64,000 nucleotides of DNA. Origin: Escherichia coli (GTDB lineage: Bacteria > Pseudomonadota > Gammaproteobacteria > Enterobacterales > Enterobacteriaceae). Location of the stretch: the NCBI RefSeq assembly GCF_011045215.1, contig NZ_CP049201.1; one strand, 5' to 3'. Under the pieces are notes generated by a model. It was not told where the DNA came from. It made no database searches and saw nothing but the letters and a program-made list of their open reading frames with translations. This document shows, piece by piece, positions 50,783-57,859 of this stretch (its first letter is position 1; every line of letters begins with the position of its first letter). Made by a program: the position numbers and the translations under genes.

Positions 50783-53700
50783 TCACAGGTTTTTATAACA
50801 TGTCGCATAAGCAAACCCAAGCTTTTCAAATACGCTTTGATCACCTGTTGCCAGGGAAACTACGTATTGTTCGCTTGAGTTTGCGGGACTAGATGACCAA
50901 TACATATTTGATTGAAAACCAGCGTCAGTCGTGTAATGCCCCATATCTCCACATTCACTGTACAGTGACCCGATGCCTCGGGAACTACAGTGGTTTAAAT
51001 AGTTTGCTCTGGGGAGCGTGTAGCCATTGCTGCTGCAAAAATTTTCAGCAAGGCTGTATATCATGAAAGCCTCGCCGGCGTTCACCCACCAACTCTTCAC
51101 ACGGATTTCGTATACATAGCTAGGGCCTCCTGATTTTGGCGTCGCCGTAATCCTTTCCGAATAGCTGCCGACATTTTTAAATGTCACTTTACCGGTAGCA
51201 TCAACATCGACCCAGGAGGCAGAGCTTGAAAACTCATAATCAGCCGCCGTTTTTCCTGGGGCAAAGTTGTCATTATTCAACTGATAATACGCCCCGGTGA
51301 ACCCCTGCGAAGGGAATGTAGTTGTCGGTAGGTCAGTACCATTGACTGATACTGTACCGCTCATTATTTTGTCTTCTGCGCGAGTGAATTGTATTGTGGT
51401 ACTCAGACCAGCTTGATGAACACCATTCAATACAGGGATCAGCGTTGCGATACCCTCTCCGCCTCCTGTAACAGTGGCTTTGTAATCACCGTTGATATTT
51501 AGACTGTAATCAATTGCGCTAATTTTTATATAGGGCACGTTAGTACCTGATTGCACAAATTCCATCCCTTCAGAAACTTTGATCGGATTGCCTGATATAT
51601 CGTGCAGAACAAGACGTAATTCAGCACTATCGGTATAGTCCCCTTTCAGTGATGACCGATTGCTCTTAAGGACGGACTGCGAGGTGTCTGCCGGGCCAGC
51701 CACCAGCGTTATATCTACTGTTTGCATTCCACCAGCGGTCGTGACTGCGCTTACCGTGACGCTACCTGTCATCGCTCCTTTCACGCTTGTTGTCGCGATT
51801 CCGTTTTGATCGGTCACCGCTGTTAATGACGTTAATGTGGCAGAGCCGCTTTTTAAGGCGAAGTACACAGTGAGACCTTCGATCAGGTTACCACTGCCAT
51901 CCTCAACCGTTGCCTTTAAGGTACTTAAATCAGTGTTGGTGGCGGCGATAGTCGATGGATCAGCGATAAAGCTAGCAACATGGGCGGTGCTTGAGTTGCC
52001 AGTGACTTTCACGGTTGTCTGTGTCTGTATTGTTACGCCGTTATGGAAAGATGCAGTCACCGTATATGTACCGACTTTATTGCTGGTCAAAACGACTGGA
52101 GCCTGACCTGAAGAGTTAGTTCTCACTTTTCCGCCACTTAACGTCGCCCCTTCTGGCGTTACGCTAAAGTTGATGACCTGACCCTCCACTGGAGTGCCAT
52201 TTGCAGAGGTTAGCGTTGCCGTCAGAGTAGCGCCTGTAGGGGCATAGACACCGATAAGCGGACTGGACGCCGTGAGTGTCAGTTTTTCATCAATAGCCTC
52301 CAGTTGTTTCTCAAGTGAGGCTCCATTCGGCAGGGATGCTTTCACCATATACGAACCGTTTCTTTCGGGCGTCATGGTGACCTCGGCTACACCCTGCGTA
52401 TTAGTAGAGACCGTATTCTGGCTGATGATCATTTGCGAGGATGGCTCTGCACTGAATGTCACGGGTTGATGCGCAACCGGGTTGCCAAACTGGTCGTTAA
52501 CGTGAGCTTTAACTGCTACGTCTTGTGCGACCATTACCTGACCTTCCGGTATCTCCTGACTGGTAATCGTCGCAGAATTAACATCTGCACTGGCATTCAG
52601 TAATCGCGAGATGACTTCAGTAGGTTTATCTGCCAGAGAGGCTGAAACTGTTTTCAGTCCGACCTCGGTGCTTGTCACAAGAATTTCAGCGAAACCCCGA
52701 TCATCCGTTTCAACGCTGGTGCTGCTTAGCGTGACGGAGGTTCCGCGGAAATTAACTTTTATGCCTTCTACCGGGTTGCCGTTAGCGTCAGTGACGCTTG
52801 CCGTCATGGTTGCGCCCTCGGTCGTGCTGACGACGAATGAGTATACAGAGGTTAAGGAGGCTAGTTTTGCGGTACCAGCATCGGCAATCAAAGTCACCTG
52901 TTTCGTATCACTGACACCATAATTGTTCACGCTAACTGTCACGGGGTAGGTGCCGGATTTTGTACCGCTCAGTGTAACTTCAGCCTTGCCGTTGATATCA
53001 GTAATGGCGGAACCGCCTTGTCCGAGAGTGAAGCTTGCGCTCACATCTGCCGGTAGCGTGAATGTCACCGCCTCATTGGCTAACGGGTTGCCGTTTCCAT
53101 CAGTCACTGTTGCCTGAAGTGTGGTCATCCCAACGTTATTGGCGATAAAGTTGTCCTCGGTAACGTTAAGATTAACCTGCGCACTGAGCGTATCCGCAAT
53201 AAAGTTCACCACCAACTGCTCACTCTTACCGCCAGTCATCGATGCTGTAACAGTATGAGCGCCTGCTTTTGTACCTTTCAGCGTGACTTTCGCTTTGCCT
53301 TCAGCATCAGTAATCGCTTTACCGCCATCGCTCAGCGTGAAGTTCGCCTTCACATCTTCCGGCAGAGTAAATGTTACTTCAGTGTTGGCTATCGCATTGC
53401 CCTCTGTATCAGCGACTGTTGCTGTTAGTGTCGTGAGATCGTTATTGTCGGCAATCACCGGATCCTTCGAGGCTGCCAGCGTGATTTCGGCATTCGCGAC
53501 GTTCGGCACATAGGTCACTGTTTGTTGCATCGAATCGCCATTTTCGAGGGTTGCCGTCACTTGATAAACCCCGGCTTTTGTAGCGGTAAAGCTTGCGTAA
53601 AAATTGCCGTCGTGGTTGGTAGTATATATAGCGTTATTACTGGGGGTCACGCCTTCACTTGGTGATACTCTGAGGGTTACCTCCTGCTGGGGGACACCGT

Positions 53701-57859: not shown

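Follow-up and report, generated by a model that had tools for sequence, protein, structure and literature searches.

How many immunoglobulin (Ig)-like domains does the adhesin gene yeeJ encode, and can a repeat count read from a single assembly be trusted? The question is raised by a 64,000-nucleotide (nt) stretch of Escherichia coli DNA (RefSeq assembly GCF_011045215.1, contig NZ_CP049201.1; hereafter the window), in which yeeJ occupies positions 50783-57859 of the minus strand. An earlier note, made from the letters alone, described an array of near-identical Ig-like repeats, prone to recombinational expansion or contraction and to assembly collapse, and advised caution over their number. 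Our analysis leads to another account, which we hold to be very probably correct: yeeJ encodes a type Ve adhesin with 16 diverged Ig-like domains, their number is stable, and the present length of the gene would go back to a deletion of 906 bp.

The tandem array of Big_1/Invasin_D3 Ig-like domains (R01-R16; amino acids 529-2164, window positions 51368-56275, minus strand) was delineated with Pfam and with a profile iteratively trained on YeeJ itself, by which the 16 units are contiguous and full-length, with a start-to-start spacing of 97-111 codons. Pfam models Big_1 (expectation value, E, 5.8e-213) and Invasin_D3 (E 2.9e-128) match 14 and 15 stretches of the protein, respectively. Because the self-trained profile is circular for units at the edges of the array, these were scanned separately against Pfam; R01, at 66.5 bits, and R16, at 39.1 bits, clear the Invasin_D3 cut-off, and separate scans take R03, R06 and R15 past that of Big_1. 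On the minus strand, R01 lies at 55961-56275, R02 at 55655-55966, R03 at 55340-55657, R04 at 55046-55354, R05 at 54734-55060, R06 at 54422-54748, R07 at 54122-54436 and R08 at 53789-54136, followed by R09 (53489-53803), R10 (53180-53500), R11 (52868-53194), R12 (52571-52882), R13 (52277-52585), R14 (51983-52288), R15 (51689-51997) and R16 (51368-51691).

An AlphaFold2 model of R06, built with the 16 units as alignment, is all-beta with a mean predicted local distance difference test score (pLDDT) of 96.0. Foldseek places it closest to intimin D00-D0 (6tqd) at a template-modelling (TM) score of 0.81, and TM scores against the Ig domains of intimin, InvE, InvD, invasin and FdeC run from 0.72 to 0.81. 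Pfam, the 16-unit profile and the R06 model thus agree on the long tandem Ig-like array that the earlier note had recognized, and the internal periodicity implied by such an array is beyond chance: protein autocorrelation peaks at lags of 104 (z 5.6) and 518 (z 6.7), and 372 off-diagonal pairs of 60-nt DNA windows, at lags of 309, 312 and 1245, share at least 65% identity, compared with none in five codon shuffles.

The units themselves are far from near-identical. Two units are on average 26% identical in protein (9-51%) and 41% in DNA (28-58%), adjacent domains share 12-51%, and the 16-unit alignment holds one invariant column; the most similar pair, R10 and R11 (52868-53500, minus strand), shows 51% protein and 58% DNA identity. 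Tandem Repeats Finder reported no array in yeeJ, even at a minimum score of 30, and an exact-seed search of the DNA found no tandem array, returning just short families of 15-35 nt with 61-83% identity. Comparison of the gene with itself by blastn gave two weak off-diagonal matches (71-76% over 88-179 nt), and no pair of 60-nt windows in yeeJ reaches 90% identity. The longest exact internal repeat, GTCACGCTGAAAGGTA, measures 16 nt, where codon-shuffled sequences give 11-14 nt; its two copies, in R06 (54517-54532, minus strand) and R10 (53272-53287), are spaced 1245 nt apart, in register.

The recurring blocks from which repetitiveness had been read are real but sparse: TLTATVKD and VTFTLP occur twice each, and TVTA occurs five times. 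They are conserved strands of the Big_1 fold and no sign of recent duplication. The 16 units are ancient duplicates, and the array, periodic in fold and profile, is in practice no DNA repeat. More generally, a recurring protein motif does not imply repetitive DNA: in the Ig stalks of inverse autotransporters it is the fold that recurs, in sequences that have diverged. The identity of 12-51% between adjacent domains is typical of multi-Ig stalks, in which low identity between neighbours is reportedly explained, as a rule, by the avoidance of inter-domain misfolding.

Close repeats do occur in yeeJ, in another allele. There are at least three in-frame length classes of the gene: 7077 bp with 16 units (K-12 and the window), 7398 bp with 17 (strain TUM3755) and 7983 bp with 19 (the UMN026/O157 type). 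The long class is represented here by strain 129130 (locus L002), whose gene encodes 2660 amino acids, exceeds that of the window by exactly 906 bp (302 codons; 7077 + 906) and is 96% identical to it in protein over the 2358 shared positions. In this allele a 609-bp unit of two domains is duplicated; the copies agree at 84% of positions over 824 nt, with an exact repeat of 112 nt between them, and identity between domains L07 and L09 is 94% in protein and 91% in DNA. The term 'near-identical' describes the 19-domain allele, not that of the window.

A base-by-base comparison with the long allele places the difference within R06 of the window, which matches L06 perfectly up to gene nt 3209 and L09 from nt 3199. 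The overlap (gene nt 3199-3209; window 54651-54661, minus strand) is an 11-nt microhomology, GTGAAAGATCC, which encodes the V-K-D-P of TLTATVKDP and would be the deletion junction. R06 is accordingly a chimeric Ig-like domain, with an N-terminal part from L06 and a C-terminal part from L09; its parentage changes within the 11 nt from 100% identity to L06 to 97-100% identity to L09, and it keeps a full-length profile match (109.4 bits, second-best of the 16). The 906-bp segment comprises, among others, the C-terminal portion of L06 and the N-terminal portion of L07, neither of which is matched in the short allele; the short-allele unit nearest to L06 is R07, itself the counterpart of L10, at 52-54% protein identity. 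We infer that the 16-domain allele derived from the 19-domain, UMN026-type allele by one in-register deletion of 906 bp, since the deleted segment lacks a short-allele counterpart, the switch of parentage in R06 is abrupt, and both parental domain types (A-type and B-type) occur intact in the divergent allele of TUM3755 as well. Such a deletion, between the VKDP-motif microhomologies of two non-adjacent domains, would have left one well-formed chimeric domain.

The TUM3755 gene (locus L004, positions 2104-9501; 2465 amino acids) has one copy of the 609-bp two-domain unit among its 17 units, and its C-terminal half is just 87% identical to the long allele; the 17-unit form may be ancestral or a contraction of the 19-unit allele. 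A change of the same sort is found in LF82 and other B2 strains, whose degraded yeeJ has lost exactly one domain (312 bp) in register between R11 and R12, at an 11-nt sequence, GGGTTGCCGTT, encoding an N-G-N-P motif. This event is independent of the first.

The opposite direction of change, with the 16-domain allele ancestral and the 19-domain allele formed from it by internal duplication or insertion, can appeal to the internal 609-bp duplication of the long allele. We nevertheless regard it as improbable. It offers no source for those parts of L06 and L07 that lack a short-allele counterpart, given the 52-54% identity of R07 to L06, and the intact A-type and B-type domains of TUM3755 speak against it, as does the switch from L06 to L09 within 11 nt, the signature of a deletion joint. 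Moreover, a 291-nt segment exclusive to the longer alleles, used as a query, matches 1,280 genomes, among them no short-allele genome.

Whether the short allele is itself unstable depends on the exact homology that it contains. Assemblers work with k-mers of at least 21, and efficient RecA-dependent exchange in E. coli is said to need some 23-27 bp of perfect homology. A longest shared word of 16 nt suffices for neither: in the allele of the window, assembly collapse has nothing to act on, and homologous recombination next to nothing. The length of the gene across genomes agrees. In a BLAST search of 5,426 complete E. coli genomes, 1,664 matched the 7077-bp query at a single place over 80% or more of its length, and all 12 full-length rows of an evenly spaced listing measure 7076-7078 bp at 96.8-99.4% identity. 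A 120-nt query spanning the R06 junction fuses two half-matches of the long alleles, and short alleles were counted instead by subtraction: the junction region is found in 2,883 genomes, from which the 1,280 with the long-specific segment were taken, leaving approximately 1,600, in agreement with the count for the whole gene. Among the sampled full-length matches of K-12 type no copy-number variation was seen; it appears only between the 16-, 17- and 19-unit classes. As the units are diverged and the same length recurs across genomes, the repeat count is a stable property of the allele.

It is thus very improbable that the window holds a near-identical, unstable array, frequently expanding, contracting or collapsing in assembly, with an unreliable count of 16. 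Such an array would fit the recurrence of TLTATVKD and VTFTLP, the existence of several length classes in E. coli, and the 91%-identical domains and 112-nt exact repeat of the long allele, which is not the window's. Against it stand the average DNA identity of 41% and maximum of 58% between units, the negative result of Tandem Repeats Finder, a longest repeat below both the reported RecA minimum and any assembler k-mer, and the constant length of the gene in roughly 1,600 complete genomes spanning 96.8-99.4% identity. What holds of the supposed proneness to recombination is that repeat number has changed in register, as seen in the 16-, 17- and 19-unit classes, the R06 scar and the 312-bp deletion of B2 strains; such events have occurred rarely, over evolutionary time.

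That the 16-domain form is an artefact, a UMN026-type gene of 19 domains collapsed in assembly, is scarcely credible: although the 906 bp by which the two alleles differ are exactly the repeated region, the junction lies at an 11-nt microhomology of domains just ~45% identical in DNA, where collapse would not occur; the place to expect it is in the 84%-identical 609-bp units, and the outcome would be 17 domains. One full-length match covers the R06 junction in K-12 MG1655, as it does in many independent complete genomes, and the flanks in the window are of K-12 type (98.6%), not of long type (95.8-97.8%).

With no exact internal repeat above 16 nt and a 7077-bp gene that recurs in some 1,600 of the 5,426 genomes, the advice of caution is not upheld: the count of 16 is stable and trustworthy, a feature of the allele rather than a doubtful product of assembly, and to flag it as an assembly risk would wrongly downgrade a sound annotation.

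The gene itself is chromosomal E. coli yeeJ, as the earlier note had named it. A single minus-strand open reading frame (ORF) spans positions 50783-57934, within which the ATG at 57859, preceded at 7-12 nt by a Shine-Dalgarno-like GGAAGG, opens an intact coding sequence of 2358 amino acids plus stop (50783-57859, minus strand, from the ORF list and its translation). Its 7077 nt are 98.6% identical to K-12 yeeJ, at equal length and with no gaps (97 nucleotides and 30 amino acids differ, most of them within the 5' 3.3 kb), and 99.4% identical, again with no gaps, to yeeJ of strain MB06233; both matches are annotated 'yeeJ: inverse autotransporter adhesin YeeJ' and are syntenic. The neighbours in the window are those of the annotated records (shiA, a family-9 glycosyltransferase (GT9) gene, tRNA-Asn, mtfA and tRNA-Ser), and the gene sits, as a yeeJ orthologue should, between tRNA-Asn/mtfA and the GT9 gene/shiA. 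Since NCBIfam has no passing YeeJ-specific model (the best, IatC_Nterm, reaches 1185 of the 2400 bits required, and the intimin model 429 of 1400), the name rests on this identity and synteny.

Outside the array, the protein has the parts of an inverse autotransporter. Read by eye from the translation, amino acids 1-45 (57725-57859, minus strand) form an N-terminal leader that is probably a Sec signal peptide (KLRR, a hydrophobic core and AAA|QG); Martinez-Gil 2017 placed the true start of YeeJ at an internal Met (PMC5595812). A LysM-like segment, presumably periplasmic, follows at amino acids ~71-118 (57506-57649, minus strand), and the LysM domain of K-12 YeeJ has been demonstrated experimentally to bind peptidoglycan (PMC5595812). 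The beta-barrel (amino acids 144-419; 56603-57430, minus strand) matches Pfam IAT_beta (PF11924) over profile positions 2-279 of 279 (E 3.4e-113), and PDB sequences matched include the barrels of invasin (4e1t, E 7.6e-80) and intimin (4e1s, E 6.2e-68), as well as FdeC (4e9l) and intimin (6tpl). The barrel lies N-terminal to the passenger and every Ig domain C-terminal to the barrel, the order of a type Ve (inverse autotransporter) adhesin. Amino acids 420-528, between barrel and R01, have no domain call, and Pfam found no Ig-like match in a scan of amino acids 414-530. Beyond the array lie an Invasin_D4-like domain (amino acids 2170-2242; 51134-51352, minus strand), which scores 27.3 bits in the isolated C-terminal fragment and 25.6 bits in the whole protein against a Pfam cut-off of 27, and a C-terminal tip (amino acids ~2264-2354; 50798-51070, minus strand) reported to be a C-type-lectin-like domain, the C-terminal region of YeeJ having been assigned PF07979 (PMC5595812). 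In the SEWGDMGHY motif of this tip, residue 2303 (window 50951-50953, minus strand), a conserved Trp position, is Cys in the window and in MB06233 and Trp in K-12, the long allele and TUM3755 (W2303C).

Several observations count against the account given here. In the array, R02 remains below threshold in Pfam (26 bits, cut-off 33). The LysM match is weak (E 0.014; 15.8 bits, under the cut-off of 20.9). The lectin-like tip could not be confirmed: Pfam Intimin_C reaches E 0.092 (13.6 bits, cut-off 27), an AlphaFold2 model of the C-terminal 205 amino acids from a 3-sequence alignment is unusable (pLDDT 45), and a PDB profile search with the YeeJ C-terminus gave nothing significant, intimin appearing at just E ~3. 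The long-to-short direction of change, probable as we judge it, is read from sequence content rather than a rooted tree. For the genome counts we relied on BLAST summaries and on rows sampled at even intervals, in which rare length variants of the short allele could be missed. Lastly, the count in the window is that of an assembly.

The secretion route, peptidoglycan binding and biofilm role of YeeJ are taken from the literature; identity, architecture, divergence, length constancy across genomes and junction anatomy come from the present analysis. By that literature, the signal peptide would carry YeeJ across the inner membrane by Sec export, the LysM segment would attach it to peptidoglycan, the 12-stranded beta-barrel would insert in the outer membrane, and the C-terminal passenger would be exported through or alongside the barrel. 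The rod of 16 Ig domains would then serve as a spacer, presenting the Invasin_D4-like domain and the lectin-like tip far from the cell surface. YeeJ is a surface-exposed inverse autotransporter that promotes biofilm formation, and its 16- and 19-domain variants behaved alike in the published assays (PMC5595812). A more speculative reading, which we consider doubtful, is that the 16-, 17- and 19-domain stalk classes arise by rare, microhomology-mediated, in-register deletions of whole domains at VKDP and NGNP, the two most conserved motifs of the Big_1 fold, and are selectively maintained instead of being neutral remnants, each tuned to project the tip beyond the O-antigen or capsule of its host lineage; the allele of the window would then be a derived short-stalk form with a functional chimeric domain.

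Among known relatives, the YeeJ of K-12 MG1655 (b1978; the 'yeeJ MG1655' variant) has the locus, the 7077 bp, the 16 units and the chimeric R06 junction of the window, although the K-12 paper counts 13 Big_1 domains and one Invasin_D3 (PMC5595812) where 16 units are resolved here. The long 'yeeJ UMN026' variant has the same locus and architecture and differs by its 19 units and extra 906 bp. In intimin, invasin and FdeC, too, an inverse-autotransporter barrel is followed by a C-terminal passenger made of Big_1-type Ig domains that show little identity to one another; they have far fewer such domains than the 16 of YeeJ (the crystallised invasin passenger, 1cwv, has 4), and binding of Tir or integrin is not reported for YeeJ. 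Repeats of such adhesins that are low in similarity still share a fold (PMC6714894). Yersinia ruckeri YrIlm and E. coli UpaH are, like YeeJ, large surface adhesins with tandem domain arrays, and misassembly and copy-number variation are documented for them (PMC5595812, PMC6714894). Their repeats are almost identical in DNA, whereas those of the window share 28-58%, and because the units of the window are diverged, the argument from instability and assembly fails here. The gene, its architecture and the 906-bp variant, published in 2017, were already known (PMC5595812); the exact junction and chimeric domain, the likely 19-to-16 direction, the 17-domain class and the one-domain deletion of B2 strains are small, incremental additions to that two-variant description.

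Around yeeJ, flanking ORFs at 47838-49154, 49469-50521 and 58346-59182 include ORFs of the sizes of shiA and mtfA and the 350-amino-acid GT9 ORF. The tRNA-Asn adjoining yeeJ lies at 58170-58245 and tRNA-Ser(CGA) at 59237-59326, and a terminator-like hairpin (12-bp stem and T tail; 50736-50763, minus strand) lies 20 nt after the yeeJ stop. The GT9 ORF (49469-50521, plus strand; K-12 'yeeL') is intact in the window, as it is in MB06233, LF82, 129130 and TUM3755; the records of K-12 DH10B and EC0026B list it as a pseudogene interrupted by an internal stop. Four tRNA-Asn(GTT) genes occur within 18 kb, on both strands (40462-40537, 42870-42945, 44694-44769 and 58170-58245). That adjoining yeeJ is a known site of island integration (PMC5595812), and no island is inserted there in the window.

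Substitutions in yeeJ are distributed as a mosaic: almost all of the 97 differences from K-12 fall in the 5' 3.3 kb, and the 40 differences from MB06233 are concentrated at gene nt 3000-4200, among them a four-residue block at amino acids 1293-1296 (NAAT vs RTNS). The pattern suggests that segments may have been exchanged between strains.

Further variants of yeeJ were seen in other genomes. In EC0026B_R2 (locus L001, positions 3001-5698), which is laboratory-derived, an in-frame deletion of 4,377 bp runs from the signal-peptide region into R10, and the gene is annotated as a pseudogene; we rejected it as a repeat-mediated contraction, the overlap at the junction being just 2 nt. The B2 remnant of yeeJ, of ~2.4 kb (in LF82, locus L003, positions 3946-6753, matching window positions 52768-53114 and 53561-57253), carries an additional, out-of-register deletion of 3.7 kb, from the barrel into R09, and adjoins the yersiniabactin island genes fyuA and ybtE, at the site held in the window by mtfA and tRNA-Asn. 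Finally, two matches to the long-specific segment are the usual number, and a few genomes have three, which could reflect further expansion of the 609-bp unit (to 21 domains) or a second copy elsewhere.

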